IMG/VR virus record: IMGVR_UViG_3300042301_002170
Strand: one strand, 5' to 3'
Length of the DNA stretch: 64,000 bases
Source: a virus
Shown here: in pieces, positions 9,540 to 58,082 of the stretch
How positions within the stretch are numbered: position 1 is the first letter of the stretch
Layout: every line of letters starts with the position of its first letter
The notes under the pieces: model-generated
Told to the model about the DNA's origin: nothing
The model's input: only the letters and a program-made list of their open reading frames with translations
Database searches by the model: none
Position numbers and translations under genes: made by a program

Positions 9540-9641
9540 ATGAGTATTATTATGATACCATTTGTTTTAATAAGTGCGATTATAGTATCATTTGCAACAA
9601 TACTTCATTTTGGAATTTGGTGGATTAATAGAAAATTATGA
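9540..9641 (+). CDS. Small hydrophobic peptide (33 aa), not in ORF track
   Basis: MSIIMIPFVLISAIIVSFATILHFGIWWINRKL*; ATGA overlap with the start of 9638. Confidence 0.45.
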   Translation: MSIIMIPFVLISAIIVSFATILHFGIWWINRKL

Positions 9642-11596
9642 GTGATTTGAGTTTTAATTTGGTTTTTGATAATTTTGAAGAAAACGGAAACCCAATTCCT
9701 AATGGGTTAGATATTTCCAAATTAGGGGCAAAAAATAGCGATTGGAATTGGATTACATACGACCCAAAATTAAATCAAAAATTTTATAAAGTAAATGATG
9801 TTACTACAGATGCCAATTTTTTCTATGTAGTTTCCTACAATACTAATCAGTTAAAAGATATATTAGATGATACGTTTATAGTATCAAATGAAGCAATAGA
9901 GTGTTGCAAAAATAAAAATTTAAAAATTTTATTTGTAAACTTTCATGAGGTAAATGATGAAGAATTTTATGTATTAAAACGGATAGTTAAATATATATCG
10001 GATTTAGGATTGGATGAGAATAATTTTTACTATATAAACAATAATAGCAAATTAAACGTATATAAAAAAACACTAAATAGTAAAATTAACACATATACTT
10101 CTGTGTCTCTATTTGAAATGCTAGCAAAAAAATTAAATAGAAACAAACCGGTTTTTAAAGAAGATAAGGAATTTTTATTTTCATGCCATAATAGAGCAAC
10201 AAGAAAACATAGACTTGAAATTTTATGTTTTTTAAAAAAATATAATATATTAGAAAATACCGATTGGTCATTTATAGATACTTATCAAGTTCCACTTCAA
10301 CAAATTCAGTTGGGCGAAATAACTGGATATTTTACATTTGTAGCCGATGAAATTGATTGGCTTAAAACGGTAGGATTAAAATATTCTAAATATGAAGTTG
10401 GTAAATTAGATTTACTTCAATTAGATGGTGGGCATATTACCAATGTAGTTACACCAGAATGTTACATAAATTGTTATATTAATATTATAACCGAAACAAA
10501 TTTTTACATACCAGAAATACACATATCTGAAAAATCATTTCGTCCATTTTATTATATGCAATTGCCAATATTTCTTGCAACGGACAGACATGTTGAAAAT
10601 TTAAGAAAAAAATTTGGATTTGATATGTTTGATGATTTAATAGACCATAGTTACGATTTAGTAAGAAATAACCAAAAACGTATGAAAATGGTTTTTGAAG
10701 AAATAAAACGTTTAAATGATAATAAAGATTTAGTAATTGAATTTTATAAACAAAATAAACATAGATTTGAAAAAAATTTAGAGTTGTTTCAAACAGCATA
10801 TAATAAAGAAGAAACTATAAATTTTTTTAAAAGTTTATCAAATAGAAATATTAACATATTAGATACTATAGATGATATAAATAAAAATATTAAGAAAGCA
10901 AATAATATGAATGATGTAGATTTAAATTTTAAAGGTGATGGTTTTAAAATATATCACGATATAATTGTACCAAACAAATGTGGTACGAGATATTTAAGAG
11001 AATATATTTCATTAAATACGGATGATGATTACAATACTCCAATTGATATAGAACATATTTGGGATTTTCCTAATTTAAATTGGATTGTAATTAGACATCC
11101 TGAAGAATATTTAAAATCTGCTTTAAAAACTGATTTAATAAGTGTTTGGAATAATACTCCTAAGTTAAATGAATTAGATGTAATAAACAGATATTTAAAT
11201 GATGGTACAAACCATTATTTTAATAATCTATATAAAACATTATATTCGTACTCTTTAGATAATAAAAATAAAAAATTTGTTTTTTTAAAAGATTTGAGTG
11301 ATTTTTGTTTATTTAGATTTGCTAATATGAAAAATTATAGTTATGATTCAACTAAATATAATATGGTAGGTAAATATTATATGGACATAGAAACAATAAT
11401 TGATTATGTAAAAGAGTTTTATCCATCTCAATGGGATACTATTCAGTTAAATTTAAAAAAAGAAATGTTTTTTTATAATAAAATAATTGAAAATTGTATT
11501 TTTTTTAATAAAATATCACATCCTCCCATAATTGTTAAAAATCAGGAAACTATTAAAGAAGTTATTGAAAAAAATAGTTGGTTAAAAACTATATAA
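9638..11596 (+). CDS. Glycosyltransferase-like (GT10/GT-B-related) domain fused to sulfotransferase-like domain
   Basis: N-part FSCHNR..HR, INIITET..ISEKSFRP..QLPIF (GT10-like TEK..P motif); C-part PNKCGTRYL / WIVIRHP. Confidence 0.55.
   Translation: MSDLSFNLVFDNFEENGNPIPNGLDISKLGAKNSDWNWITYDPKLNQKFYKVNDVTTDANFFYVVSYNTNQLKDILDDTFIVSNEAIECCKNKNLKILFVNFHEVNDEEFYVLKRIVKYISDLGLDENNFYYINNNSKLNVYKKTLNSKINTYTSVSLFEMLAKKLNRNKPVFKEDKEFLFSCHNRATRKHRLEILCFLKKYNILENTDWSFIDTYQVPLQQIQLGEITGYFTFVADEIDWLKTVGLKYSKYEVGKLDLLQLDGGHITNVVTPECYINCYINIITETNFYIPEIHISEKSFRPFYYMQLPIFLATDRHVENLRKKFGFDMFDDLIDHSYDLVRNNQKRMKMVFEEIKRLNDNKDLVIEFYKQNKHRFEKNLELFQTAYNKEETINFFKSLSNRNINILDTIDDINKNIKKANNMNDVDLNFKGDGFKIYHDIIVPNKCGTRYLREYISLNTDDDYNTPIDIEHIWDFPNLNWIVIRHPEEYLKSALKTDLISVWNNTPKLNELDVINRYLNDGTNHYFNNLYKTLYSYSLDNKNKKFVFLKDLSDFCLFRFANMKNYSYDSTKYNMVGKYYMDIETIIDYVKEFYPSQWDTIQLNLKKEMFFYNKIIENCIFFNKISHPPIIVKNQETIKEVIEKNSWLKTI
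10523..10750 (+). repeat. Direct-repeat blocks, copy 1 (copy 2 at +4082 nt)
   Basis: 51-nt (10523-10573), 35-nt (10619-10653) and 47-nt (10704-10750) stretches identical to 14605-14655, 14701-14735, 14786-14832. Confidence 0.85.
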
Positions 11597-11615: not shown

Positions 11616-11918
11616 ATGAATATATCGGTTTTAGACACATTTGAAAGAGGTTATGTTAAGTTGGATTGGAACGAGTATATAAATCGTGTCCAATTAACAT
11701 TAGAACATATGGAAACCATTGTAGATATGATTGATACTTTTAAATTATCAAAATCTGCAAAAGAGTTGGTTGTATTTAGGTTTGAAAACATTCCCGCATA
11801 CATCACTATAAAAAAAGATGAATATCTAAATTTACTAAATTGGATATACGATAAAGCATTAGAACTTGAAATATACGAATTGTGTAAGAAAGTCATGGAT
11901 GTAAAAACTTCTTTATGA
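11616..11918 (+). CDS. Hypothetical protein (100 aa; start ATG 11616)
   Basis: Tiling ORF; C-terminal W..KALELEIYELC motif. Confidence 0.7.
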   Translation: MNISVLDTFERGYVKLDWNEYINRVQLTLEHMETIVDMIDTFKLSKSAKELVVFRFENIPAYITIKKDEYLNLLNWIYDKALELEIYELCKKVMDVKTSL

Positions 11919-12154
11919 ATAAAATAACAGAAATAGCAGTAAGTTGGTGGAGAGCTGAAAATCCTACAAAGGAACAATCTGATTTAGCACAAAAACGATT
12001 GGATATTTGTGTAGGTTGTGATTCACGTAAAGAATCAATTGTGTTCGGATTTGTATGTGGGGAATGTGGTTGCCCAATAGGTAAGAAAATATTTACACCT
12101 AAGTTGGGTACCTGTGATTTAAAAAAATGGAACAACATAGAAGGATTATCTTAA
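11915..12154 (+). CDS. Cys-rich small metal-binding protein (DUF6171-like)
   Basis: RLDICVGC..10..CGECGC..13..CDLKKW; six Cys. Confidence 0.6.
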   Translation: MNKITEIAVSWWRAENPTKEQSDLAQKRLDICVGCDSRKESIVFGFVCGECGCPIGKKIFTPKLGTCDLKKWNNIEGLS

Positions 12155-12192: not shown

Positions 12193-13575
12193 ATGAAGAG
12201 TGTTTTAATCGGTGTAGATTATATTAAGAATACGGATGGTATAAAATTATTAGAATTAAATACGGATATTCAAATATCAAATTTAAAAGCTTCTTATTTT
12301 GACCACGATGTGTTAATGCAGTATCTTGCAACAAATAACCTAACAAAAATACACATTATATATAAGGAAATATACACCTCTCCGTTATTTATTGGTACTT
12401 TAAAAGAAAAATGTTTAACAAATAATATTGAGTATTTTGAAACTAAAATTAGTGTTAATAGTATTTTGATTGATGAGATTGCGGATGATACCGAAACTTT
12501 ATTTTTAAGATTAGCATACAATGCACAGGCGATATTAGATGAGTATTATTGCAGAGAAAATGGTGAATTGATTAATTTACTATTTGAAAATGGAAAGGAA
12601 TCTTATATACCTAAAACATATTTACAATATTCTAATGAACTTTTACATGATAATGTTGATTCTATAAATAATAATGGAAATTATCCAAATATAATAGTTA
12701 AAAAAAATTATTCAGATGCTAATAAAACGTTATATCCTGCGTTTTATAATCTTTCAAACGAAACGGAACTAAACAATTTAAAATCAAATTTACCAAACAA
12801 TATATTTTTACAAGAGTACTTATTTTCTTCTGAAAATATTGAATCTGATTTAATTGTAAATCATATTAGAAAATGGTATATTATTGCAAACTCTATGGAA
12901 GATGTAGTTGATTGTGGTGGATATTTACATTCAAACCAAGTTCCGTTAAATAACGATAACATTAATTATACCGATAGTAAATTGGATAATGCAGGTAGAG
13001 CTATGTTTTACTCTAATCCAAATAGATTATCATCTGCGGGTGTTATTTCCCATTATAAAGTTAATAAGTTAGATAGTGAGCAAAACTATCAACCAATCGA
13101 AGTTTCTCAAATTGAATATGGAGATACAATACAGGCATTAAACATTGATACATTAGATGTTGATATGGCTGAATTAAAAATGTTAGAATGGAGATATACT
13201 GGTTCGGTTGAGGATTTAATGACATATACCACCGCATCTGTTGTTAGAAATATTAAATATGATATAGAAGATTGGTTCAATAAAATTGAATATATTAGTG
13301 CAAATCAAACAACTGGTTCATTTTTATTACAAATGAACAAAATGGTATTAACTGAAAAAGATGGTATCGTTAAATTTACAAACGCGCAAGATTTAGAAGT
13401 TGGTATTAATGTTTTTAACACTACTAATAGTGTTTCTGCAATAACGGCGGTAGGTAACGAATATTTTTCTGGTTCAATATATTTACTAGATATAGAACCT
13501 ATTGATGTTTTTATAGCGGGAACTGCTGATAATGAAATTCTTAATTCAACAATAATAATGCATAACTTTAAATAA
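12193..13575 (+). CDS. Circularly permuted ATP-grasp-like ligase fused to C-terminal Hint (intein-like) domain
   Basis: N-terminal GVDY..DG.KLLELNT, IPKTY, IIVK, FLQEY; residues ~283-458 show Hint blocks (IEVSQIEYGDTI, AQDLEVG, IYLLDIEP..VFIAG, IIMHN). Confidence 0.6.
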   Translation: MKSVLIGVDYIKNTDGIKLLELNTDIQISNLKASYFDHDVLMQYLATNNLTKIHIIYKEIYTSPLFIGTLKEKCLTNNIEYFETKISVNSILIDEIADDTETLFLRLAYNAQAILDEYYCRENGELINLLFENGKESYIPKTYLQYSNELLHDNVDSINNNGNYPNIIVKKNYSDANKTLYPAFYNLSNETELNNLKSNLPNNIFLQEYLFSSENIESDLIVNHIRKWYIIANSMEDVVDCGGYLHSNQVPLNNDNINYTDSKLDNAGRAMFYSNPNRLSSAGVISHYKVNKLDSEQNYQPIEVSQIEYGDTIQALNIDTLDVDMAELKMLEWRYTGSVEDLMTYTTASVVRNIKYDIEDWFNKIEYISANQTTGSFLLQMNKMVLTEKDGIVKFTNAQDLEVGINVFNTTNSVSAITAVGNEYFSGSIYLLDIEPIDVFIAGTADNEILNSTIIMHNFK

Positions 13576-13576
13576 T

Positions 13577-13687
13577 ATGGCACAGAATATAATACAAATC
13601 AATAGACCCGTAACTTCTACACAAAACACAACTTGTTTAAATATAATTACTGATATAATTTCTTTAATTAAAGCGAAACACAGTTAA
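13577..13687 (+). CDS. 36-aa peptide, not in ORF track
   Basis: MAQNIIQINRPVTSTQNTTCLNIITDIISLIKAKHS*; fills the gap 1 nt after the upstream stop and 11 nt before the next ATG. Confidence 0.65.
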   Translation: MAQNIIQINRPVTSTQNTTCLNIITDIISLIKAKHS

Positions 13688-13698
13688 TATATTTTTAT

Positions 13699-14988
13699 AT
13701 GAGTGAATCTGTTATAAATTTGGTTTTCGATAATTTCGACCAAGATGGAAATCCTATTCCAAATGGTTCACATATTACAGAATTAAAAGCAACATTATCA
13801 AACGAGTTTTTAAACAAAAACTCATTGAGAAATTTTAATTTTAATATAAAAACAAAATTCTATCACATAAATGATATTACTAACGATGATATATTTTATT
13901 ATATAGTCGGTTACACCACTACTCAGTTAAAAACAATATTAGACGATACATTCATACTATCTAATGAAGCAATAGAATTTTGTAAAAATAAAAATTTAAA
14001 AATTTTATTTGTAAATTTTCATGAAGTAAATTATGAAGAATTTTATTCATTAAAACAAATAGTTAAATATATTTCATATTTAGGATTAGAAGAAGATAAT
14101 TTTTATTATATAAATAATAATAGCAAATTAGAAGAGTATAGAAATATATTAAACAGTAAAATCCATACATATAATTCTATGGTTTTATTTGAATTTATTG
14201 CAAATATATTATGTGAAACTAAAACATTTTTTAAAGAAAATAAAGAATTTTTATTTTTATGCCATAACAGAATTTTTAAAAAACATAGAATTGAAACTTT
14301 ATCTTTTTTAAAAACACACAATATATTAGAAAATACAGATTGGTCAAATTTAAATCAACAGTATAAACATGTAGTCTCCGAAAAATACGCACTTGGCTCG
14401 CGGCGTGGGGAAACTATGGATATACAAGAAGATAAATCAATTTCAAACAAAATAGGATTAAAATATTCTAAATACGAAATTGATAAAACGGATTTACTTC
14501 AATTAGGTCAACCGGAATTTGGCGTTGCGGTTACTCCTGAATGCTATTTAAATTGTTATATTAATATTATAACCGAAACACTTTTTTATTCTACAGAAGT
14601 ACATATATCTGAAAAATCATTTCGTCCATTTTATTATATGCAATTGCCAATATTTGTTGCAACACGCAATCATGTAAAATATTTGAGAAAACAATTTGGT
14701 TTTGATATGTTTGATGATTTAATAGACCATAGTTATGATTTAGAAATAGACCATATAAAACGTATGAAAATGGTATTAGAAGAAGTAAAACGTTTAAATG
14801 ATAATAAAGATTTAGTAATTGAATTTTATAAAAACAATAAAGATAGATTTGAAAAAAATTTAGAGTTGTTTCAAACGGCATGTAATAAAAAAGAAACTTT
14901 AAATTTTTTTAAAAATATTAATACATTAAATAAAATAAATGACACTAATGATTATTTTGATAAAAGCCAAAAGAAATCATTAGTGTAA
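13699..14988 (+). CDS. Glycosyltransferase-like protein (paralog of the 9638 N-domain)
   Basis: FLCHNR..HR, INIITET, ISEKSFRPFYYMQLPIF. Confidence 0.6.
   Translation: MSESVINLVFDNFDQDGNPIPNGSHITELKATLSNEFLNKNSLRNFNFNIKTKFYHINDITNDDIFYYIVGYTTTQLKTILDDTFILSNEAIEFCKNKNLKILFVNFHEVNYEEFYSLKQIVKYISYLGLEEDNFYYINNNSKLEEYRNILNSKIHTYNSMVLFEFIANILCETKTFFKENKEFLFLCHNRIFKKHRIETLSFLKTHNILENTDWSNLNQQYKHVVSEKYALGSRRGETMDIQEDKSISNKIGLKYSKYEIDKTDLLQLGQPEFGVAVTPECYLNCYINIITETLFYSTEVHISEKSFRPFYYMQLPIFVATRNHVKYLRKQFGFDMFDDLIDHSYDLEIDHIKRMKMVLEEVKRLNDNKDLVIEFYKNNKDRFEKNLELFQTACNKKETLNFFKNINTLNKINDTNDYFDKSQKKSLV
14605..14832 (+). repeat. Direct-repeat blocks, copy 2
   Basis: Identical to the blocks in 10523-10750 at a constant offset of 4082. 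Confidence 0.85.
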
Positions 14989-15545
14989 TGTATAATCAAA
15001 AAATAATTTTTAATGAATTAGAATGTAAACAAATTTTATCAGAATTTGTTGGAAATAATCACGTTGCTTACAAAATTCGCTATGATGGTGTTTTTTATGA
15101 AAAAGGATGTAGCGCTACTTCACATGATTTAAAATGGGATTCAAATAATAAATGGATTTTTAATAAAATTAAAAATTGGACAGATGAATTAAATTTGGGT
15201 TTAAAATGGAAAAAACCACCATCTGCAAGTTTTAGAAAATATAAAAAAGGAGATTTTTTTTTAAAACATACGGATGATGTAAAAGGTGATTATGTTAGAA
15301 GTGAAAGAGGTATTAGAATTTTAACAATAGGAATACAGTTAAATGATAAATTAGATTATTTTGGTGGCGATTTTTTTGTGTGGGATAATAGTAATAAAAT
15401 TCATATTGGTAAATCTTTGGGCAATTGTGCATTATATACCACTAATATGCCACACGAGGTTACTGAAATAACGGAAGGTGAAAGAAATTCATTAATATTA
15501 TTTATTACAGATATGCACGCTACTTTTACTAAAAGTATAATATAA
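14988..15545 (+). CDS. 2OG-Fe(II) oxygenase (prolyl-hydroxylase/PKHD-like)
   Basis: HTD..LTIGIQLN..Y.GG.F...HEVTEITEGERNSL: HxD...H iron triad plus 2OG-binding Arg. Confidence 0.85.
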   Translation: MYNQKIIFNELECKQILSEFVGNNHVAYKIRYDGVFYEKGCSATSHDLKWDSNNKWIFNKIKNWTDELNLGLKWKKPPSASFRKYKKGDFFLKHTDDVKGDYVRSERGIRILTIGIQLNDKLDYFGGDFFVWDNSNKIHIGKSLGNCALYTTNMPHEVTEITEGERNSLILFITDMHATFTKSII

Positions 15546-15546
15546 T

Positions 15547-16221
15547 ATGAATAAACTTTGGACATTTGGGGATAGCTTCACTGCAGGTCATGGTTGTACT
15601 TCAGAATTTGAGTATTATAAAAAATATTATAAAGAAGGTGATAAACTTTGGGCTGAGTTACTTTCTGATGAATTAAATTTAGAATTATCAAATATTGGTA
15701 AAAGTGGTGCAAGTAATGATTATATTATAGATTCTATAATTTTAAATTGGAACAAAATAAAACAAAATGATTTTGTTGTAATAGGGAAAACATTTAGTTA
15801 TAGATTTGATGTGCCAATAAAATCAGAAAAATCTATTATCGATACAATATCTAATAGTTGGCAATCACTTGGTATTTCTGAAAGAGAATTTAGAACAATT
15901 GGGTCACCTAATTATGTGGTTTTGGATAATGTAAATGAAGAATTTGAAACAATTATAAATTTTAATTATCATTTTGCGGCAAATCCATTGTATAAAGAAC
16001 GACAAGATTTAAGATATGACTTCTTAGTAAATGAGTTGGAGCAAAAACAAATTAAAGTTTATTTATGGGATATTGAGTCCTCACACAGAAAACTAAAGTT
16101 TAACACCATAAAAATGGATACTAAAAATGAAATAGATGACGGTCATTTTTCTTTTAAAGGACACATTGAATTTTATAGATGGATTTCTAAAAAAATAAAA
16201 AATGAAAATAAAATAATTTAA
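15547..16221 (+). CDS. SGNH/GDSL-fold hydrolase or acyltransferase
   Basis: FGDSFTAG block I, GKSGASND block II, DGH block V. Confidence 0.7.
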   Translation: MNKLWTFGDSFTAGHGCTSEFEYYKKYYKEGDKLWAELLSDELNLELSNIGKSGASNDYIIDSIILNWNKIKQNDFVVIGKTFSYRFDVPIKSEKSIIDTISNSWQSLGISEREFRTIGSPNYVVLDNVNEEFETIINFNYHFAANPLYKERQDLRYDFLVNELEQKQIKVYLWDIESSHRKLKFNTIKMDTKNEIDDGHFSFKGHIEFYRWISKKIKNENKII

Positions 16222-16281
16222 ATATGTTATGAAAATAATAAAAATAAATACACGAACCTAAAAGTAAAATCAATTATTTAA
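16222..16281 (+). pseudogene. Start-less relic 3' end of a tagged gene (ICYENNKNKYTNLKVKSII*)
   Basis: The 60-nt spacer is fully open in the upstream gene's frame and ends in the cluster tag KSII* just before ATG 16282. Confidence 0.4.
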
Positions 16282-16980
16282 ATGGAAATACATCATTTTG
16301 GGGACAGTTATTGTTTTACTAATATGGGACCTGTGTTTTGTCAAATTATGGCAAAAAATATTGAATACCAATATAATCTGTATGGACGAAGTGGATACTC
16401 TAATGAACAAATAATTAATAGTGTTATAAAAAATTTAGATAAATTTAAAAGTGGAGATAAAATATTTATAAATTTTTCATTTTTTACAAGAGGGTGTTGG
16501 TATGATGATAAATCTAAATCAATACAATCGTTAAATACGTTTTATAATGATTTAAAAAAAACAAAAAAGGATTTAGGACAAATACAAATTGAAAAAATAA
16601 TGCCATTAGTTGATTATTATTTGGTAAATACTGAAGACAACGCAAGAAAATTATTCACTATAATGGATTCCATTTTTGAATATATTGAAAAATTAGGTGT
16701 AAAAGTATTTTACATATTTGTAGATGAGTATGATTGGTCAGATGAATTATTAAACAATGGAATTAATATTAAATTTAAAAATGGGTTTGGATTTTGGTTA
16801 AAAAAGAATAATTTTCATTTAGGTACGGATGGACACTATACAAAAGGAATACAAGATATGTTAGCAGATATTATACTTAAAAAAACAAATAATTTAGAAG
16901 AAACAATTAATAAAAAGATTAATATAGATATGGTAGATGTTAATTTAGAATTAATAACAAAACCATCAAAAATAATTTAA
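16282..16980 (+). CDS. SGNH-fold protein
   Basis: FGDSY, GRSGYSN, DGH motifs. Confidence 0.65.
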   Translation: MEIHHFGDSYCFTNMGPVFCQIMAKNIEYQYNLYGRSGYSNEQIINSVIKNLDKFKSGDKIFINFSFFTRGCWYDDKSKSIQSLNTFYNDLKKTKKDLGQIQIEKIMPLVDYYLVNTEDNARKLFTIMDSIFEYIEKLGVKVFYIFVDEYDWSDELLNNGINIKFKNGFGFWLKKNNFHLGTDGHYTKGIQDMLADIILKKTNNLEETINKKINIDMVDVNLELITKPSKII

Positions 16981-17547
16981 ATGGTAATTACAATTTTAGC
17001 AGAACCCAGAAGTGGTTCAACCAATTTAACAAATTGGTTTTATTATAATAAAAATTTTACCACATTATTTGAACCATTAAATCCTATGTCAAAGTGGTTT
17101 CAAAAAGATATACCCCCAATCAATTATCTGTACGATACTGAACATTTATGTATCAAAGAAGTATATTATCCACATAAGGATTGGGAGGATATTATAGAAG
17201 TATCTAATAAAATAATTATATTATATAGAAACGATTACACAAAACAATTAGAATCATTTTTAAATGCGGTAAGAACCTCCAATTGGGGCGGTGAATATAT
17301 ATACAAACATATTGATACAACATTTATTAAAGAAAATACTGATTATTTTAATGAATTAAAAACTAAATTTAAAGAAAAATACATAGATATGGATTTTTTT
17401 AAAATATCATATGAAGAATTATATAATGAAAACGGATTTCAAAAAATAGTTGATTATATCAATTTAGACTGTGTTGAAAATAAAAATTTTCCATATGGTC
17501 AAAAATACCGCATAGAATTTAATGAAAAATCCAAAACTTTAATTTAA
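16981..17547 (+). CDS. Sulfotransferase-like protein (Stf0-like P-loop)
   Basis: AEPRSGST 5'-PSB loop, FEP, ILYR..QLES, ISYEEL. Confidence 0.65.
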   Translation: MVITILAEPRSGSTNLTNWFYYNKNFTTLFEPLNPMSKWFQKDIPPINYLYDTEHLCIKEVYYPHKDWEDIIEVSNKIIILYRNDYTKQLESFLNAVRTSNWGGEYIYKHIDTTFIKENTDYFNELKTKFKEKYIDMDFFKISYEELYNENGFQKIVDYINLDCVENKNFPYGQKYRIEFNEKSKTLI

Positions 17548-18786
17548 ATGGAAATACAATTCTGGTACTGTGATTTTTATTCTAATTATACAAATATTAA
17601 AGAAACAATTCAAAAAATAGATAATACTATTTTATTTAAAAATATTTCTACTGATAAGATAGACCCCACAAAATTAAATTTTTTAGTTTTTTTATTAGAA
17701 ACTGAATGGGAAAATTCAGATGCCGATAAAATTAAAGGATTTTCAAAAAATATAAAAACATCAAATACCAATTCTAATGAATTTATAAATTTATTAATTG
17801 AATTACAACATAAAAATTTTTATTTTTTAATGGATAATACCGGAGAGGCTGTGCTTTGGTTGGACGAAAAATATTTAAATTTTATTAATAAATTAAACAG
17901 AAATAAAATTGATTCTAATAGATTAATTATTGCAAATAATGATTCATCTGATATTGGTATAAATAAAAGAAATAAGTATAATCCAATCCATAACTTAGCA
18001 AAATATGGTAGTTTTATATTAAATACGTGTTTTTTTCCTAAATTTTTTTTATCAACCTATAATCATATGAGTGGTTATATTGAAGATATTACTATTAAAA
18101 CGGTAATCAAACCAGATAAAACATTTTTATGTTTGAATAGAAGAATGAATTTTAAAAAATATCAAATTATTGAAGAATTATTTAATAAAGGGTTATTAAG
18201 AGATACTCGATTTACTTGGGTACACAACGCGGTACCCACTAATCGAATAAATAAAAAATTATTATCAGAACTAAATATAAATGTAGATAACTTTAAATCA
18301 ATTCAATTGGAAGATGATGTAATGTATGGTAGTCAATTATCATATTTAGATGAGTTTTTATACACCATAAACCCAAACTGGTATTATAAAAGTAAAGTTA
18401 ATATCATAACAGAAACTATGTTATATAAAAATTCAATACACCTTACAGAAAAAACATGGAAAGCAATCTATTTAGGTGTTCCATTTGTTATATATGCACC
18501 ATCAAAACATTACCTTAAAACATTAAGGGATATGGGATTTAAAACATTTAATTCGGTTATTAATGAGGACTATGATGAAATGGATGGTGATGGTAAAATA
18601 AAAAAAATTATAGATAGTGCATTAGAATTATCAAATATTTATGATAGTAAAGAAGTATTAGAAATATGTAAATTTAATCAGGAATTATATTTTAATTTAG
18701 AGTATCGTAAAAAAATATATAAAGAAACTTTTTTAGACAAACTATATGATATTAAAACCACATTTGTTTCTAAAACTTTAATTTAA
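17548..18786 (+). CDS. Glycosyltransferase-like protein (third GT10/GT-B-related paralog)
   Basis: FLCLNRR, VNIITET, LTEKTWKAI..GVPFV, LRDMGFKTF..VINEDYD. Confidence 0.6.
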   Translation: MEIQFWYCDFYSNYTNIKETIQKIDNTILFKNISTDKIDPTKLNFLVFLLETEWENSDADKIKGFSKNIKTSNTNSNEFINLLIELQHKNFYFLMDNTGEAVLWLDEKYLNFINKLNRNKIDSNRLIIANNDSSDIGINKRNKYNPIHNLAKYGSFILNTCFFPKFFLSTYNHMSGYIEDITIKTVIKPDKTFLCLNRRMNFKKYQIIEELFNKGLLRDTRFTWVHNAVPTNRINKKLLSELNINVDNFKSIQLEDDVMYGSQLSYLDEFLYTINPNWYYKSKVNIITETMLYKNSIHLTEKTWKAIYLGVPFVIYAPSKHYLKTLRDMGFKTFNSVINEDYDEMDGDGKIKKIIDSALELSNIYDSKEVLEICKFNQELYFNLEYRKKIYKETFLDKLYDIKTTFVSKTLI

Positions 18787-18787
18787 A

Positions 18788-19366
18788 ATGGATATAAAAA
18801 TATATAATAATACAGTAATGGTTCCAGTAAAATGTGGTAGTAGATATTTGGATAAAATTTGGGAAAGTGAAAGAGTTAAATTTAATCATTATGAATACTT
18901 AGAATTTCCAAAAGTGAAATACATTGTGGTGAGAGACCCAATGAGTCATTTGATAACGGCACTACACACAGAAACGCTTGAATTTATAAATAAGTCAGGA
19001 GAAATAAATAATTTTTATGAAAAACTAAAAGAGTTTATTAGTCCGCATAATGACACTCATGGTGTTGCGCATTGGTGTGTTCGTTTTTATGAATACTTTT
19101 ATTATTACAAAAAAAAATATGGTGAAGATATTCAAGTAGTAAAATTAGAAAATTTAACCGAATTATTAAAAAATTTAGGTTATACCATTGAATACAATCC
19201 GGATGAATATAATTTTAACAACTATAAAATATGGTGGTCAAAAGAAGAGTTATTTCAAATATTAAAAGATACACATCCAAATGAAATTAATTGGTTAATA
19301 GATAAAGTTGCAATTCAAAATGTTTATTATAACAAACTTTTAAATAACAATTCCAGTTTAATATGA
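18788..19366 (+). CDS. Sulfotransferase-like protein (PxKCGSR family)
   Basis: PVKCGSRYL, YIVVRDP..L.TA. Confidence 0.5.
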   Translation: MDIKIYNNTVMVPVKCGSRYLDKIWESERVKFNHYEYLEFPKVKYIVVRDPMSHLITALHTETLEFINKSGEINNFYEKLKEFISPHNDTHGVAHWCVRFYEYFYYYKKKYGEDIQVVKLENLTELLKNLGYTIEYNPDEYNFNNYKIWWSKEELFQILKDTHPNEINWLIDKVAIQNVYYNKLLNNNSSLI

Positions 19367-20124
19367 AATCTATAAAGTATTGGAAAAAAGATGAGTTCGA
19401 TGTTGCTACCTATAAATGGAATTTAGCGGAAAGACGAAATCAAACATTTAATGGCTCTGGTTCAGATGAAAGTGGAACTAATGTTTACACTTATAACGAA
19501 ATGGGATTTAGAGGAGATTCAATTTATAAAGATGGATTTAGAATTCTATCAGTTGGTTGCTCTCATACAGAAGGAGTTGGTGTATCCGATAATCAAACCT
19601 GGCCTCATTATTTTTCAAGATTAATAAAAAAAGGAGTTGATTTAAATGCTGGCTTTGGTGGCAGAAGTAATGATTATATAACAAGATGTGTAGTTTCATT
19701 GGTAGATACATTTAGACCAAATATTGTAAACATTATGTACACATACCCATCGAGAAAAGAATATTATAGATATGGTGGAGAATTAGAACCATTTCATATG
19801 AATCCGTGGGGATATTTTGAAGAAAACAACGAAGGTAAAGAAGAATATAAAGCAATTGCCAGAATAACACATGATGAAAATGATTTAATAAATTGGTATA
19901 AGAATCATTTGTTGATAACGAATTTATTACAAAATAAAAAAATACCATACACTTGGAACGGTTCTTTTTTGAATGATGATAGTGTAATGGATGATTATAG
20001 ATTCGATGGTGAGTATGGTAACTTTAGAGAATTCTCAATAGATGGTAAACATGCAACTGATATTCACAACGAAGAATATGCTAATAAATTGTTTGATTTT
20101 TGTAAACATAAAAAGTTAATTTAA
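19363..20124 (+). CDS. SGNH-fold protein
   Basis: GCSHTEG, N.G.GGRSND, DGKH. Confidence 0.65.
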   Translation: MKSIKYWKKDEFDVATYKWNLAERRNQTFNGSGSDESGTNVYTYNEMGFRGDSIYKDGFRILSVGCSHTEGVGVSDNQTWPHYFSRLIKKGVDLNAGFGGRSNDYITRCVVSLVDTFRPNIVNIMYTYPSRKEYYRYGGELEPFHMNPWGYFEENNEGKEEYKAIARITHDENDLINWYKNHLLITNLLQNKKIPYTWNGSFLNDDSVMDDYRFDGEYGNFREFSIDGKHATDIHNEEYANKLFDFCKHKKLI

Positions 20125-20125
20125 T

Positions 20126-20156
20126 TTGTTAATTTCAAAAACTTTTCGTATCTTTG
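20126..20156 (+). promoter_or_regulatory. Bacteroidota-type promoter
   Basis: TTG(20126)-N20-TATCTTTG(20149). Confidence 0.7.
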
Positions 20157-20159
20157 GAT

Positions 20160-20477
20160 ATGATTATAGTTCCACAAACACCCATAACAGAATCTAGCTT
20201 TCAAAAATGGAAGTCTCATAGATTAGAAGTAGAAGATGGTATCGATTCATACCACTACTATGTAATTCCTTTAATTGATATTGATGAAGAAGAAATACCA
20301 GATATAGAAAGAATACCTGCATTATTTAGTTCCGAATCTGATGCGTATTTTAATGATGATGGTAAAGCAGAATATACTTTACGATTATTCGATGATGACC
20401 TGCCTGAATTAGAATTTGAAGAGGAGGTTGAAATACTTTATAAAATTTTAACAAAAAAAGAAATTTATTTAAAATAA
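20160..20477 (+). CDS. Acidic hypothetical protein (start ATG 20160)
   Basis: ORF immediately after the promoter. Confidence 0.7.
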   Translation: MIIVPQTPITESSFQKWKSHRLEVEDGIDSYHYYVIPLIDIDEEEIPDIERIPALFSSESDAYFNDDGKAEYTLRLFDDDLPELEFEEEVEILYKILTKKEIYLK

Positions 20478-20478
20478 C

Positions 20479-20509
20479 TTGGAAAAGTTAAAAATATTTC
20501 GTATATTTG
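20479..20509 (+). promoter_or_regulatory. Bacteroidota-type promoter
   Basis: TTG(20479)-N20-TATATTTG(20502). Confidence 0.7.
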
Positions 20510-20546: not shown

Positions 20547-21194
20547 ATGAAAGAAAAAACAGAACAAGAATTAGAAGCAAATTACAACAAATTTATAGAA
20601 ATCCTTAAAAAATACTTTACAGGAGAAAGATTAGAAAAGTTGTTGTTTATGTATTCTCCAGACGAGTTAGGATTAAATCTAACGGTCTCTCCAGCATCCG
20701 GTAACAAAGGATTCCATAATGCATACGATGGTGGATATATTGACCATATTTTTAATGTTTGTAAGAATGCTCTAAAAGTAAAAGAGTTATTTGTATCAGC
20801 GGGAGGTAAGATTGATTTTACAGATGAAGAATTATTATTTGCAGCATTGCATCATGATTTAGGTAAATTAGGAATCAAAGGAGAGTTACACTATGTAGCT
20901 AATGATTCAGATTGGCACATTAAGAACAGAGGTGAGTTTTATAAACGTAATGAAAATATTACATTTATGACAATTACTGACAGAACTTTTTATACTCTTA
21001 ATCATTATGGTATTATTTATAATGAAAAAGAATATTTTGGAATTAAACTTACAGATGGTTTATTTGATGAAGATAATGAAAAGTATTATAAAACATTTGA
21101 TTTATCCAAATCTTTAAAATACACTATTCAGTATGTACTACATTGGGCAGATTATATGTCTACCATTATAGAAAGACAAGATTTGATAAGATAA
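20547..21194 (+). CDS. HD-domain metal-dependent phosphohydrolase
   Basis: H.AYDGGYIDH, ALHHDLGK, LTDG, HWAD. Confidence 0.8.
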   Translation: MKEKTEQELEANYNKFIEILKKYFTGERLEKLLFMYSPDELGLNLTVSPASGNKGFHNAYDGGYIDHIFNVCKNALKVKELFVSAGGKIDFTDEELLFAALHHDLGKLGIKGELHYVANDSDWHIKNRGEFYKRNENITFMTITDRTFYTLNHYGIIYNEKEYFGIKLTDGLFDEDNEKYYKTFDLSKSLKYTIQYVLHWADYMSTIIERQDLIR

Positions 21195-21297: not shown

Positions 21298-21690
21298 ATG
21301 AGCACATTCAACAGTAAAACTAGCTACAAAGCAAATTTAGACGATTTATTTTTAGATTGGGATAATCTATTCACCCACGCTAAACAAAACGTATTTTCCG
21401 ATTATACCACAAAAGAATTAGAAGATGGTAAAATTGAATTATCGGTAAATGTATTGGGACACAACCCAAAAAATATCTTATTAGAAGTAACTGAAGATAA
21501 GATTACAATTAAATCAAATAAGCCAGAAGGAGAATCTGATTTAATTAAAGATATTGATTTTAGCTTCAAATTAGGTAAAGATTACGATGGTACTAAATCG
21601 GAAGCTAAGTTCAATAATGGAGTACTTTCAATCACCATCGATAAGAAGGATGAAAGAAAGGCAAAAAAATTATCTATTAATATTAGGTAA
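21298..21690 (+). CDS. hsp20: Small heat-shock protein (Hsp20/alpha-crystallin)
   Basis: VLGHNPKNILLEV, FSFKL, AKFNNGVLSITI..K...KKLSINI. Confidence 0.85.
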   Translation: MSTFNSKTSYKANLDDLFLDWDNLFTHAKQNVFSDYTTKELEDGKIELSVNVLGHNPKNILLEVTEDKITIKSNKPEGESDLIKDIDFSFKLGKDYDGTKSEAKFNNGVLSITIDKKDERKAKKLSINIR

Positions 21691-21715
21691 TATAAGTTAT
21701 TTTTCGTATATTTAG

Positions 21716-54700: not shown

Positions 54701-55277
54701 TATTCAAGGTGATAGAGCTATATCTGGTTATACAAGTTTACGAGAGTTTGAAAATGGTAGGGAAGCGAACACAGGAGAGAACATAGGAGAACAAAATAAC
54801 ACATTATTTACATGGTATACTAGAAATCAAAACGCAGGACAAGGTGCAATATGTGGTATTGCAGCAAGTACGGGTAATCTGAGTTTTTATGGTAATGGTG
54901 GAGTACGTGCTTATCGATTCACTCAAGATGGTGGTGGATACCAAACCGGTTCTGATAGAAGTCTTAAAGATAATATAAATAAACTAAATGACAAATTTGG
55001 AATAGAATTTATTAATAAATTAAATCCCGTAGAATTTGTATATAAAAGAGACCCCCAATATAAAAAGTTTGGATTTATAGCACAAGAAGTATCATCTTCT
55101 TTATTGGAGTATGATATGAATATGGATAATTCAACAATAGTTCAATGTGATGAAAACAATAAAGATAAAACATTAACTATAGATTATACAGAATTTATAA
55201 CTCCATTGATAAAATCAGTACAACAATTATCAGCAAGAATAGAAGAATTAGAAGCAAAACTTAGTGGTTCTATATGA
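51771..55277 (+). CDS. Tail fibre/spike protein with C-terminal intramolecular chaperone (peptidase S74)
   Basis: Gly/Ser/Thr-rich beta repeats, Ala-rich coiled coils, SDRSLKDNI..LNPVEF.YK..GFIAQEV..IDY.EFI..L..SVQQL. Confidence 0.88.
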   Translation: MAITKKTLFADNLDKYNTFVTDTDPLSKYFKLTELPDTFTGGKNAFLIQGSEYLVADSLIKIELKDAKGDIIYHEPGEGIISASVGGEPIITEYYEGVSKLVSVYIYPDTAYGPCTLTILGELSSYDNNGVNTLIPANWEGSYNVKWQKEINVVPSLANTTKIRFYKRPTAKITEILSPIYKIENDLKVASAVTQSFANIKLSNLETFAGDVKRIKVFRTSVGDISDYDMIQDILVESKELLTSFGLSGSVVGNTGIFTSEVLKNQWNSGSLNATLNSTRVEAGVRLTGSGLFTYTQSLDLKSTNTYELNLDAFYSSSTSSNLGIYLVSGSTSSNIGTLIGTQPTKNLLDTNIPFKIDRDYPTASLYFSQSQGEWHVGNVSLKLSEDTAFSPDEVSFITTMPTVLGNETFNFKFEFYDVNNNYVPVAVTQSALFNGGNTNIGGTILLISSSTSQSLADLNRVSQSISGTATLYSSSANTTIVTLSGSVSGTIGTVSGSVFTLSGSVSSSITTVSQSVALTLSSSLSKVQQLADGNYTGVFIDGTTVFAPVIGGTTGYISGKFTVGAPPNSIVLDATTSTRRIYIGTGTYGNTNTNVYLDSTGKFSLGDKLSWSGTALSLTGEVIITSGTTKTAIDNAASAASTAQTTADTANAAAIAVDGKVFTDSTGKLSKTPSLTSSGLYLGSTFLGYYNGSAWKTYMANNGNFFLSGTGDNGLSWNGTTLNITGEVVITSGTTKTAIDNAASAASNAQGTANSAATAASNAQGTANSANATAIAVDGKVFTDSTGKLSRTPSLTSSGLFLGSEFLGYYNGSNWKTYMSNTGNFFLSGAGTNGLSWNGTTLSITGEISVTGGNAATTTQVNGKISAGGAASDVNSNSTTISGGKIRTGVIESTGYAYSSGDYSTTGTQIDLDNGLVRSKNFVITSAGDAKFRGNITATGGSFTGDVTAGGVTIGTSGINVTGTYGINVNSLLGLSIQGDRAISGYTSLREFENGREANTGENIGEQNNTLFTWYTRNQNAGQGAICGIAASTGNLSFYGNGGVRAYRFTQDGGGYQTGSDRSLKDNINKLNDKFGIEFINKLNPVEFVYKRDPQYKKFGFIAQEVSSSLLEYDMNMDNSTIVQCDENNKDKTLTIDYTEFITPLIKSVQQLSARIEELEAKLSGSI
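53598..54275 (+). repeat. Tandem module duplication in tail fibre (106 aa + 120 aa)
   Basis: Units 53598-53915 and 53916-54275, partial third from 54276; 57-nt identical stretch at 53641 and 53959. Confidence 0.9.
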
Positions 55278-56263
55278 TAGTATTCATAACAACAGGTTAC
55301 GGAAAAAATATAGTAGGAGGTTCGGATATATGGTGTAACAACTTTGTAGAAAACATCTTACCATTAGTTACAGAAGATTACAAAATTGTAGTTGATGGTA
55401 GACCTTTATTACCAGAAAAAGATGCAATTTACACTTTCCAAAACGATGAAGAAATCGATAGGATATTGGATGAGTGTGATAAGATAGTGTTTCTACATCA
55501 TTCTTACAAACCAAATCCTATAATCAAAAAGTATCTTCACAAAACTCACACAACTTTTGTTCATGCTTTCATTCCTGATATGTTGGGATTGAATGATGAA
55601 TATGAAAACCTAATGACACGATTAGATTGGCATTGGCAAAAGGATATTTTGGATAATTCTAAAAATATCGTTTGGATAGGTTATGAGAAAGATACAATAC
55701 ATACTTACTTTCCAAACACAATTACTATTCCAAATTATTATGAATGGAAACACAACAAACCATATGAGGATGTTCAGAGTAATAAGATAGGGTATGCTGC
55801 AAGATGTGAAACAAGAAAGAACGCACATTACTTAGATGCAATACCTGCTTTTGTATTCTCAAACAAATATGATTACAAACGAATGTTAGAGGGTAGTAAG
55901 ATAAACGCAGATGTTCATACATTTATAGAGTTTGATTACCGTTTTCACGACAAATTTTTTAAAAAACAATTTAAGATATTTCACGGTTGTTACACCAAAG
56001 AACCATTTGGATACGCAATCTTTGATGCAATAGATAATGGGAAATTACCAATAATACATTCTGATTGGATGAAAGGAATTAAATATAGATACAGAGCAAT
56101 GAATAAAAGACAATTTCATTATCAGTATTTAAGAATATTAGAAGATGGATTTGAAAAAAATAAAAAACAATTTGATAGATTGAAAAAAGGATTAGAAATT
56201 TATACTGATAAAAATAAATGGATAGAAAAAGTTGTTAATCTGAATTTTTTTTCGTATATTTGA
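55274..56263 (+). CDS. Glycosyltransferase, GT4/GT-B-like
   Basis: N-terminal GG..IW, C-terminal EPFGYAIFDA..GKLPI. Confidence 0.65.
   Translation: MIVFITTGYGKNIVGGSDIWCNNFVENILPLVTEDYKIVVDGRPLLPEKDAIYTFQNDEEIDRILDECDKIVFLHHSYKPNPIIKKYLHKTHTTFVHAFIPDMLGLNDEYENLMTRLDWHWQKDILDNSKNIVWIGYEKDTIHTYFPNTITIPNYYEWKHNKPYEDVQSNKIGYAARCETRKNAHYLDAIPAFVFSNKYDYKRMLEGSKINADVHTFIEFDYRFHDKFFKKQFKIFHGCYTKEPFGYAIFDAIDNGKLPIIHSDWMKGIKYRYRAMNKRQFHYQYLRILEDGFEKNKKQFDRLKKGLEIYTDKNKWIEKVVNLNFFSYI
56232..56262 (+). promoter_or_regulatory. Bacteroidota-type promoter
   Basis: TTG(56232)-N20-TATATTTG(56255). Confidence 0.7.
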
Positions 56264-56296
56264 TATACTTTTAATTACCAAGCTAAAAAACTGACA

Positions 56297-57064
56297 ATGC
56301 TACCAGTACTACAAGATATAAACTACTTAAAAAGTTACTTAACAAATAATTTAGAATTTAATGAACATCAGGAAGAAGAAGTAATACCAGTTCCTTACAG
56401 ATGGTCACATGGAGCAACTGATACTCATTTAGGTGATGGTTTAATTATTTATTCTCTCATTCAGTATATGAGAGCAAAAGTTTGTGTTTGCTTAGGTAGT
56501 GGAGGCGGTTTTGTGCCTAGATTAATGACACAAGCCAGATATGATTTATACAGACAGGGTATATTAGAAGGAGATGCTAATTTAAATTGGGGAGATATTG
56601 GAGTTACTTATGTAGTTGATGCTATGAATGGTATCGGTGGTAAAGTGGATTGGTTTAAAGAAGAATCTTTTTTTAGAAGAACATTTCATCCTCGTATTTT
56701 ATCAACTACTACAGAAGAAGCATTCCATAACCATTTTGTTTTAAATGATATTAAAATAGATTACTTACATATAGATGCAGGACACAGTTATGAAAATGTT
56801 AAAGAAGATTTTGAATTATATTCCCAACTTATATCCTCAAATGGAATTATTTCTATTCACGATACTGACCCTAATTTTGCGGATAGTTACTTAATAACAG
56901 ATGAAGTAAAAGATAGAGGTGATTTTGAAGATTGGCATGGTCCTATTCAGTTTGTAAAAGAATTAAAAGAAAATCCAAAATGGGAAACGTTTGATTTATT
57001 TAATTTTGGAATAGTAAAAAATAAACCGTCATCAACGGGTCTTACATTAGTTAAAAGAAAATGA
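56297..57064 (+). CDS. Class I SAM-dependent methyltransferase (Methyltransf_24-like)
   Basis: CLGSGGG motif I, IDYLHIDAGHSYE.VK.D, GIISIHDT. Confidence 0.85.
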   Translation: MLPVLQDINYLKSYLTNNLEFNEHQEEEVIPVPYRWSHGATDTHLGDGLIIYSLIQYMRAKVCVCLGSGGGFVPRLMTQARYDLYRQGILEGDANLNWGDIGVTYVVDAMNGIGGKVDWFKEESFFRRTFHPRILSTTTEEAFHNHFVLNDIKIDYLHIDAGHSYENVKEDFELYSQLISSNGIISIHDTDPNFADSYLITDEVKDRGDFEDWHGPIQFVKELKENPKWETFDLFNFGIVKNKPSSTGLTLVKRK

Positions 57065-57909: not shown

Positions 57910-58082
57910 CGGACGAAGAATTATTATTAGAACAAAGAAAAGTAAAAGCATTAGAAAAGATTTCAAATTCATTAGATGCACTAACTGTTTGGTTTGAAGA
58001 AATAGATAAAGATGAATGGAGTAATAGAGTTCAATATTATTTATCTGAGTGGCATAAAACTGTTGAAAATACTGAAGAATAA
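57906..58082 (+). CDS. 58-aa helical protein, not in ORF track
   Basis: MTDEELLLEQRKVKALEKISNSLDALTVWFEEIDKDEWSNRVQYYLSEWHKTVENTEE*; overlaps both neighbours' stop/start. Confidence 0.75.
   Translation: MTDEELLLEQRKVKALEKISNSLDALTVWFEEIDKDEWSNRVQYYLSEWHKTVENTEE

Follow-up and report, generated by a model that had tools for sequence, protein, structure and literature searches.

The genes considered here lie on the + strand of a 64,000-nucleotide stretch of DNA from an uncultured large phage (IMG/VR record IMGVR_UViG_3300042301_002170), the whole of which we call the window, and are arranged as follows.

9638-11596, +, GT-like domain fused to a PxKCG domain; ends WLKTI, tail at 11582-11593
11915-12154, +, Cys-rich small protein of 79 aa; ends EGLS, untagged here
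12193-13575, +, ligase-Hint core gene (ATP-grasp plus Hint/BIL domain), without a tail
13577-13687, +, basic 36-aa peptide, untagged; ends KAKHS
13699-14988, +, GT-like protein; tag KSLV at 14974-14985
14988-15545, +, 2OG-Fe(II) oxygenase; tag KSII at 15531-15542
15547-16221, +, SGNH/GDSL-like protein; tag NKII at 16207-16218, then a 60-nt gap
16282-16980, +, SGNH-like paralogue; tag SKII at 16966-16977
16981-17547, +, sulfotransferase-like P-loop enzyme; tag KTLI at 17533-17544
17548-18786, +, GT-like protein; tag KTLI at 18772-18783
18788-19366, +, PxKCG-domain protein; tag SSLI at 19352-19363
19363-20124, +, SGNH-like protein; tag KKLI at 20110-20121

The products of the eight consecutive genes from 13699 to 20124 end in KKSLV, TKSII, ENKII, PSKII, SKTLI, SKTLI, NSSLI and HKKLI. 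A first-pass annotation had read these ends, together with the WLKTI of 9638-11596, as a C-terminal (K/S)-x-(L/I)-(I/V) tag on eight unrelated enzymes, and all of these termini are present in the sequence, as are the ends PFIN, YEVV, LISK and NVNN that it had quoted from elsewhere in the window for comparison. The strict pattern describes seven of the eight, ENKII having Asn at the first position, and "eight unrelated enzymes" is overstated because the products sort into five families, with two GT-like and three SGNH-like paralogues beside one each of a 2OG oxygenase, a sulfotransferase-like and a PxKCG-domain protein. Among the folds proposed, sulfotransferase is supported by the structural matches given below, 2OG oxygenase by Pfam (PF13640 at 2.5e-9 over residues 81-173 of 14988-15545, with the tag 12 residues past the domain), and GDSL was recovered at the Pfam cut-off, but the GT-like assignment was unconfirmed, as this family matched no Pfam or NCBIfam entry and no PDB sequence (single sequence or profile) and gave a weak, sub-threshold embedding lead to GT10. 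The fusion protein 9638-11596 is a paralogue of both 13699-14988 and 18788-19366; its WLKTI end is a weak variant of the tag, which is missing at the internal end of its GT-like domain. The tag can be written as a flexible Lys-rich linker followed by [K/N]-[S/T/K]-[L/I]-[I/L/V]-COOH, 4-8 residues long; its four final positions hold 2.2, 2.2, 0.8 and 1.2 bits of information.

Comparison of terminal residues, which covered non-abutting genes as well, bore out the proposed enrichment: an [LI][IVL] ending is found in 8/8 cluster genes and in 0/63 other + strand genes of the window (Fisher p 9.4e-11). As had also been claimed, genes that abut one another elsewhere in the window lack the tail (0/34). 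Within the eight proteins the same dipeptide stands at 3.5% of the internal positions, from which the chance of 8/8 is about 2e-12, and the tail motif is 55 times commoner at the C-terminus than internally. A second enzyme island of the window (55274-62995), with a methyltransferase, a GT2, two GT7 and a radical SAM protein, has no tagged gene among its seven, and the structural genes of the window carry no related motif.

Conservation of the tail is at the amino acid level. It is retained in orthologues at 55-67% identity, and the best 120 listed homologues of 17548-18786 (55-100% identity) all end in [LI][IF]. In L001 and L002, relatives that are 90-95% identical, 16282-16980 is missing; the L001 orthologue of 13699-14988 (96% identity) has an identical tail, and the L001 counterpart of SSLI in 18788-19366 reads VDII, a patch of three substituted codons in which the aliphatic pair is kept. 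Codons vary, as had been remarked: tail Ser is encoded by both AGY and TCN, the Leu, Thr and Lys codons vary like those of the gene bodies, and all three stop codons occur after tails, so that synonymous change is free while the residues are kept. The last tail codon alone is skewed, to ATA, which by our reading putatively reflects ATGA overlaps. Nor is the tail lost where no gene abuts, as it is present in 106/113 genes (94%) followed by a gap of at least 30 nt versus 373/386 abutting genes (97%); in the window itself, no gene abuts the end of 19363-20124, where a 29-nt spacer contains a promoter-like site. Since the conservation is at the amino acid level and independent of the gap, the alternative offered in the first-pass annotation, an overlap with the initiation region of the next gene, is rejected, and its main suggestion, a signal read by a partner at the protein level, gains support from these sequence patterns.

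The tail also behaves as an add-on. In the AlphaFold2 model of 16981-17547, which by Foldseek matches Stf0, SULTs and TPST, the core has a pLDDT of 85-95 and residues 176-188 fall below 50, and the linker ahead of the tag varies in length in the alignment. As noted for the 2OG oxygenase, the tag lies beyond the Pfam domain, and cyanophage homologues of that enzyme are without it. The tag is thus real, selected at the amino acid level, disordered and terminal.

Hundreds of enzymes in related phages bear the tail. Families are bimodal by a loose aliphatic-pair test, 25 being tagged in at least 75% of members and 54 in at most 25%; about 22 of the former carry the real tag and three are false positives. 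The roughly 22 BLAST-distinct families tagged in 80 related loci include Trp halogenase, SET, methyltransferases, 2OG oxygenases, GDSL and sulfotransferase-like enzymes. The 2OG oxygenase family is 99% tagged, as counted from the loci (a word-based homologue search returned 10 close matches), and the family of the Cys-rich protein 11915-12154 is 87% tagged in relatives, the clade of the window (e.g. L018) being without the tail. Counted from the ligase-Hint gene, itself tagged in 1%, gene offsets -5 to +4 show tags in 72-95% of genes. The complete relative G006 has half of all its [LI][LI] ends in the 23 kb around the core. Of 11 partial records containing a GT-like homologue, 10 encode a ligase-Hint protein as well; in G003 the two are 60 kb apart, and remote multi-Hint variants keep the order core, small peptide, tagged genes. 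Adjacency to the core is not required, because tagged GT-like genes are distant from it in L004, L005, L008 and L010. The tag is therefore specific to the island and linked to the core pair at both the gene and the genome level. All these phages possibly form one lineage, in which case the co-occurrence of tag and core may reflect shared ancestry.

In Flavobacterium phage immuto, a control without the ligase-Hint gene, 3/81 ORFs of the first 50 kb end in [LI][LIV] and none of those ORFs has the Lys motif. By megablast, neither the island nor 16 kb of the window matched any deposited phage. A shuffle test within families revealed no concerted switching of the I/L tip residues (last and second-last positions) within genomes, and hence no signal of co-evolution toward a reader, because the tips of one genome's enzymes do not switch together.

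The tagged families flank a constant, tail-less pair, the ligase-Hint gene (12193-13575) and the basic peptide (13577-13687). The former encodes a predicted enzyme with an N-terminal ATP-grasp ligase domain of the glutathione-synthetase/GspS/YgiC type and a Hint/BIL domain that ends in His-Asn, after which only Phe-Lys follows. Its AlphaFold2 model (pLDDT 91.7) matches 2hgs (GSH synthetase), 7uk8 (YgiC) and 2io9 by Foldseek, and the Hint domain matches 6y75 (BIL2), 2lwy and 1at0. Across 79 homologues there is no variation at E21, N23, R106, D116 and R226, and K170, H457 and N458 are conserved to at least 90%; the protein thus shows both the permuted ATP-grasp fold and the conserved residues for metal and nucleotide binding. 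Hint splicing needs an N-terminal Cys, Ser or Thr nucleophile. As no conserved column of this kind was found in the homologues, C-terminal cleavage alone is plausible and splicing is not. The protein is strongly acidic, with a net charge of -30 in the window and a family median of -38, the most negative of 74 families, in contrast to the basic tails and small peptide. The peptide always directly follows the ligase-Hint gene, most of its relatives end in K-x-K-H-L-(S/G/N/GE), and about 70 of 81 sources, namely the 80 related loci and the window, have a small ORF of its family or of a variant family beside the ligase-Hint gene. In relatives the Hint His-Asn is followed by a hypervariable Cys-rich peptide (median 31 aa, 17% Cys) that tends to end in K-[LIV]; the ligase-Hint proteins of the window's clade are without it. 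Searches with the ligase-Hint protein by tblastn against deposited phages and by a pattern scan of 185,579 prokaryote genomes, the latter of limited sensitivity, found no match and no relative, respectively. Long ligase-Hint variants contain extra Hint domains and one BACON domain; fused tailoring domains, sought in these variants as a Rosetta-stone test, were not found.

We surmise that the eight termini are copies of one protein-level motif that would mark interchangeable tailoring enzymes of one phage island. The tag would then be a C-terminal short linear motif, a docking handle that brings unrelated enzymes onto one island-encoded partner for joint action on one substrate, and the partner would most plausibly be the ligase-Hint protein, with or without the small peptide. 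We consider this a serious possibility, somewhat short of probable, and docking on the ligase-Hint core is our best guess. Glutathione-synthetase/GspS/YgiC-type enzymes bind the C-terminal carboxylate of a peptide, and the core is a candidate partner because its ATP-grasp domain matches such carboxylate-binding enzymes and because it is acidic versus the basic tails and peptide. In relatives the substrate would likely be the Cys-rich peptide released after the Hint His-Asn. Binding to a single partner, the choice of the ligase-Hint protein and the nature of the substrate are inferences. Against this reading stand the tip residues that do not switch in concert, the tagged GT-like genes distant from the core, the possible common lineage and the lack of a Cys-rich peptide in the window's clade; the reader may also be encoded by the host. 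A more specific version, which we regard as unlikely, is that the tag is the enzyme half of an undescribed system by which large phages recruit enzymes for peptide tailoring, and that the ligase domain of the putatively self-cleaving ligase-Hint scaffold would grip or chemically activate the free carboxylate at the ...K-[S/T]-L-I end of every exchangeable enzyme. The address label would then be carried by the enzymes and not by the substrate, inverting the logic of leader peptides, and new enzymes could join the pathway by gaining four residues.

It is unlikely that the tag is a degron, a basic-then-aliphatic C-terminus by which a host AAA+ or tail-specific protease would keep the enzymes short-lived or remove them at a set time. 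The bacterial C-terminal degrons of MuA (...RRKKAI, a ClpX C-motif 2 with basic residues before a small or aliphatic C-terminus) and ssrA (...LAA) resemble the tail in sequence, the tail is disordered, terminal and aliphatic-ended, and no phage-encoded reader was found in the PDZ_2 and S41 searches of five large relatives. However, a general host protease gives no reason for confinement to one island, for the 0/63 and the untagged second island, or for the tight tracking of the ligase-Hint gene, and Ser/Thr at -3 with Lys at -4 suggest a specific pocket.

We also think it quite unlikely that the enzymes themselves are substrates of the ligase, with the ATP-grasp domain activating the tag carboxylate and joining it to an amine (an amino acid, a polyamine, the small peptide or, once released, the Cys-rich peptide), so that they become covalently modified or tethered. 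The fold match to enzymes that phosphorylate peptide C-terminal carboxylates, the invariant catalytic-type residues and the K-[LIV] ends of the Cys-rich peptides would suit such a reaction, as would the need for the motif to be at the extreme C-terminus, illustrated by its loss where the GT-like domain ends inside the fusion 9638-11596. Against it, the small peptide and the Cys-rich peptide are simpler substrates, and we know of no precedent for more than 20 enzyme families as stoichiometric substrates of one ligase.

An address that sends the enzymes to the membrane, a phage compartment or the capsid is very unlikely. The Lys-rich linker and aliphatic tip would fit a polybasic, hydrophobic-tipped signal, and encapsulins, whose shells share the HK97 capsid fold, have C-terminal cargo peptides. 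Yet the enzymes need the cytoplasmic cofactors FADH2, 2OG, SAM and PAPS, an amphipathic membrane helix would need more than 4-8 residues, and the link is to the biosynthetic core rather than to head genes, the window's structural genes being without a related motif; nothing speaks for the packaging role suggested earlier. We give practically no credence to a nucleotide or compositional artefact arising from AT-rich starts of abutting genes, cassette-recombination junctions or low GC, which the island GC of 22-26%, the many junctions that read TTAATTTAAATG and the ATA skew might suggest, as it is refuted by the gap, codon and enrichment counts given above (both Ser codon types, all three stops, 0/34 abutting genes and about 2e-12).

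To our knowledge, no C-terminal address tag for a phage biosynthetic island has been described, and our literature search found no description of a shared C-terminal tag of this kind, so the tail looks like an undescribed docking label. Textbook examples of short C-terminal tags common to unrelated enzymes come from eukaryotes (PTS1, KDEL), and encapsulins have such tags too. Across more than 20 families in hundreds of uncultured large aquatic phages, an enzyme's four-residue tag predicts that it belongs to one pathway. This offers a simple sequence rule for finding pathway enzymes and, in the tag peptide, a testable handle for fishing out the reader; phages might also use the tag to exchange the tailoring enzymes of a pathway. 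Were the ligase-Hint protein the reader, peptide modification would be organised in a new way, and the tag might serve as a portable label for enzyme scaffolding. Cyanophage dioxygenase arrays with halogenase and sulfotransferase contexts have been reported, the passages on these arrays making no mention of a shared C-terminal tag (Iyer et al., 2010, PMC2938197).

Several known systems resemble the tag in part. Like PDZ class I ligands and Prc/Tsp substrates, 5/8 window tails have Ser/Thr two residues before the aliphatic end, but Lys often takes this place (Ser/Thr in 43% and Lys in 20% of family-weighted tails). The PDZ-like or protease reader first proposed is unsupported, as PF13180 (PDZ_2, the one PDZ family searched) and PF03572 (S41) had no match in five large relatives (completeness 95-100% for four), while control genomes were matched. 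The eukaryotic, organelle-targeting PTS1 (-SKL-COOH, read by the TPR protein Pex5) is likewise a free C-terminal signal of 3-4 residues common to many unrelated enzymes of a single compartment or pathway, but its [SAC]-[KRH]-[LM] differs from [STK]-[LI]-[ILV]. Encapsulin cargo peptides, also disordered C-terminal extensions on unrelated enzymes with the partner encoded nearby, are about 10 residues long, Gly/Ser/Leu-rich and bound by a shell, in contrast to the Lys-rich tag of 4-8 residues; the neighbours here are enzymes, the ligase-Hint gene and the small peptide, and no encapsulin shell gene adjoins. RiPP pathways bring many tailoring enzymes (halogenase, hydroxylases, methyltransferases, sulfotransferases) to one ribosomal peptide by a leader and RRE, and the island likewise has tailoring enzymes, with a hypervariable Cys-rich peptide in relatives, whereas here the common element sits on the enzymes, the "precursor" would be the ligase-Hint protein of about 460 aa, whose window copy is without a core peptide, and no RRE was seen among the Pfam matches. 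Several phage proteins share a short docking tail on one hub in T4 (gp45 clients) and T7 (gp2.5 and gp4), but those tails are acidic or aromatic and belong to DNA-handling proteins, while the tag is basic/aliphatic on enzymes that modify small molecules or peptides. The IxI/V anchor of small heat-shock proteins, which docks in the beta4-beta8 groove, has its aliphatics split by one residue, unlike the adjacent, terminal pair of the tag; Hsp20 is found in 5/5 large relatives, near the core in three of them, and within 10 kb of it in 22 of the 81 sources.

All eight genes of the cluster 13699-20124 were found, by ORF listing and by direct reading of the junctions, to encode the shared termini listed in the first-pass annotation (KKSLV, TKSII, ENKII, PSKII, SKTLI, SKTLI, NSSLI and HKKLI), and the gene 9638-11596 likewise ends in WLKTI. 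An [LI][IVL] ending is carried by 8/8 cluster genes versus 0/63 other plus-strand genes (71 in the window; Fisher p 9.4e-11), and with this dipeptide at 3.5% of the internal positions of the eight cluster proteins, the chance of 8/8 is ~2e-12. The shared termini are real and well beyond chance expectation. As had been claimed, abutting genes elsewhere in the window do not end this way, the tail being absent from 34/34 of them. The GC content of the cluster is 22-26%, compared with about 30% in the rest of the window. The description as eight unrelated enzymes was too generous, as the proteins fall into only five families (two GT-like, three SGNH-like, one 2OG oxygenase, one sulfotransferase-like and one PxKCG-domain protein). 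The proposed GT-like fold has only a weak GT10 lead behind it. The proposed sulfotransferase fold was matched by an AlphaFold model of 16981-17547.

Relatives were taken from IMG/VR with two queries, the GT-like protein and the neighbouring 460-aa protein. The tail is kept in orthologues at 57-67% identity (NPKTLI, HPKTLI and TYKTLI among others), and the 120 best database homologues listed for the GT-like protein all end in [LI][IF]. Among 532 non-redundant genes from tagged families, Ser at the third-last position is encoded by AGY and TCN with usage close to that of the gene bodies, the Lys, Asn, Leu and Thr codons of the tail vary, and all three stop codons are present. Codon skew is limited to the last codon, towards ATA, which we read as a probable result of the frequent ATGA overlaps. 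In the same set, the motif does not vanish where no gene abuts: the tail is found in 373/386 genes whose downstream neighbour abuts and in 106/113 followed by a gap of at least 30 nt, and the window itself offers 15547-16221 and 19363-20124 as examples of tailed genes without an abutting neighbour. A three-codon substitution patch between the window and the related locus L001, which are about 92% identical across the junction, turns SSL-I into VDI-I and retains the aliphatic pair. Codon freedom, gap independence, orthologue conservation and the kept aliphatic pair together reject both the overlap with the AT-rich initiation region of the next gene, which had been the stated alternative, and a DNA element at cassette junctions. 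They support the tag as a signal that would be read at the protein level, as originally suggested.

With each family weighted equally, the last four positions read, from the C-terminus inward, I>L>V, L>I, S/K/T and K>N, with information contents of 2.16, 2.17, 0.84 and 1.15 bits; Lys enrichment at -5 to -8 is weak. The four-residue pattern is 55 times as frequent at the C-terminus as internally in the same proteins. For 16981-17547 the model gives pLDDT values of 85-95 in the core, while residues 176-188 fall below 50 and are unstructured, and in the sulfotransferase-like family a linker of variable length precedes the tag. The tag of the 2OG oxygenase lies 12 residues past the end of the Pfam domain and is absent from the C-termini of its cyanophage homologues (S-SSM7, S-CAM7). 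The fusion protein 9638-11596 carries a tag-like end at its true C-terminus alone, the internal end of its GT-like domain having none.

Across 81 sources (80 related loci and the first 30 kb of the window), tagging is sharply bimodal by family, with 25 families at 75% or more and 54 at 25% or less; the upper class was scored by a loose aliphatic-pair test, so that the genuine tag is present in about 22/25, the other three being false positives. Among the tagged families are a tryptophan halogenase (PF04820, 3.7e-89), SET-domain proteins, FkbM- and CmcI-type methyltransferases, several 2OG oxygenases, GDSL proteins, a radical-SAM-like protein, DUF6734 and several families without a match, a mix that suggests the tailoring of peptides or proteins and not glycan work alone. 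The second enzyme island of the window (55274-62995: a methyltransferase, GT2, two GT7-LamG and radical SAM) has overlapping genes and no tag. In the complete relative G006 (288.7 kb), [LI][LI] ends occur in 22/383 ORFs versus about 10 expected, 11 of the 22 within 23 kb around the core. Judged from these distributions, the tag is specific to the island, not to an enzyme class. The loci L001 and L002, which are 90-95% identical to the window, lack the SGNH-like gene 16282-16980 together with its 60-nt leader (window 16222-16980), and their flanking genes abut directly (L001:2737-2738); near-identical phages differ here by the gain or loss of a whole tagged gene. Beside the tagged island in some relatives (L003:13876-20332; L014, which is 71578-79914 of genome G003) stands a protein of ~1,650-1,760 aa ending RVVVVR, accompanied by one to three ~370-aa paralogues, each with the terminus GHCGWR[AGT]; this is another C-terminal ending that several proteins have in common.

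The constant core is the ligase-Hint gene 12193-13575: at gene offsets -5 to +4 from its homologues 72-95% of genes are tagged, compared with 1% for the gene itself. Its model (pLDDT 91.7) shows a Hint/bacterial-intein-like domain fused to an N-terminal ATP-grasp domain, the latter with matches to glutathione synthetase, glutathionylspermidine synthetase and YgiC/YjfC. E21, N23, R106, D116 and R226 are invariant in 79 homologues, and the terminal His-Asn is nearly so. The family comprises 432 clusters at 50% identity; no relatives were found by tblastn in deposited phages, nor by a pattern scan of limited sensitivity in 185,579 prokaryote genomes. The gene is present in 10/11 partial viral records with a GT-like homologue, and 60 kb separates the two in G003. 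Most members carry a hypervariable Cys-rich peptide after His-Asn (median 31 aa, 17% Cys), at times with one or more canonical Hint domains behind it. In the clade of the window this stretch is down to 2-7 residues, and the window copy, with Phe-Lys (HN-FK), has lost the peptide. Cys/Trp/Tyr-rich peptides of 20-150 aa follow His-Asn in L003:6145-7620, L007:7620-9137, L011:5211-6707 and in the proteins P0133, P0135 and P0138-P0140, and some of these continue beyond the peptide into a second Hint domain of canonical type, which begins C-F-x-A-G-T. Lying between two self-cleaving domains, such a peptide could come free bearing a reactive C-terminus, which might serve in cyclisation. Remote variants of 600-900 aa (L169:9914-12649 in G013; L167:8033-10246 in G017) have two or three tandem canonical Hint/intein-type domains after the ligase (Pfam Intein_splicing 3e-24, PT-HINT, Vint); their gene order is unchanged, namely core, small peptide and tagged genes. 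The small basic peptide is conserved directly 3' of the ligase-Hint gene (window 13577-13687; about 70/81 sources). It ends in K-x-K-H-L-(S/G/N/GE) in most relatives and in KHS in the window's clade; the usual end is similar to the K-x-K-[S/T]-L-I of the enzymes but lacks the terminal Ile.

The best explanation of the tag, which we hold tentatively, is a docking handle that would plug interchangeable tailoring enzymes into the core of the island; no description of such a tag was found in the literature searched. The PDZ-like scaffold or protease first suggested as its reader fared poorly, as neither a PDZ_2 domain nor an S41 protease is encoded in the five large relatives searched, of which four are 95-100% complete. 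A degron, the degradation signal among the initial proposals, is unlikely. Hsp20 is encoded in 5/5 of these relatives, near the core in only 3/5, and lies within 10 kb of it in 22/81 sources; the tag is not of the sHSP IxI form. These results give Hsp20 no special standing as the hub. No concerted switching of tip residues was seen within genomes. Glutathione synthetase and GspS, of the same ATP-grasp family as the ligase-Hint protein, bind the C-terminal carboxylate of peptides. Among 74 families, that of the ligase-Hint protein carries the strongest negative net charge (median -38; -30 for the window copy), against basic tails and a basic small peptide. These two points favour the protein, indirectly, as the candidate reader. 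That the tag would be a substrate of this ligase seems quite improbable, and a localisation or packaging address very much so.

A promoter-like motif, TTCGTATNTTTR, occurs five times in the window versus 0.3 expected:

1829-1840, + strand, copy of TTCGTATNTTTR
20145-20156, + strand, copy of TTCGTATNTTTR
20498-20509, + strand, copy of TTCGTATNTTTR
21703-21714, + strand, copy of TTCGTATNTTTR
56251-56262, + strand, copy of TTCGTATNTTTR

All copies lie just upstream of genes and none within the tagged cluster. The motif includes TAnnTTTG, which we take to resemble the Bacteroidota -7 promoter element, a likeness that would be in keeping with a Flavobacteriia-type host. The window's baseplate wedge shares 40% identity with its counterparts in Flavobacterium phage immuto and Microcystis phage Mel-JY01. 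Directly after the last tagged gene, 20154-20477 encodes a very acidic protein of 107 aa (net charge about -18), which together with a 215-aa gene without a Pfam match (20547-21194) and Hsp20 (21298-21690) forms a set of conserved neighbours in 21/81 sources. The Lys-rich tails could conceivably have this acidic protein as another partner; otherwise it may just mark the conserved edge of the island.
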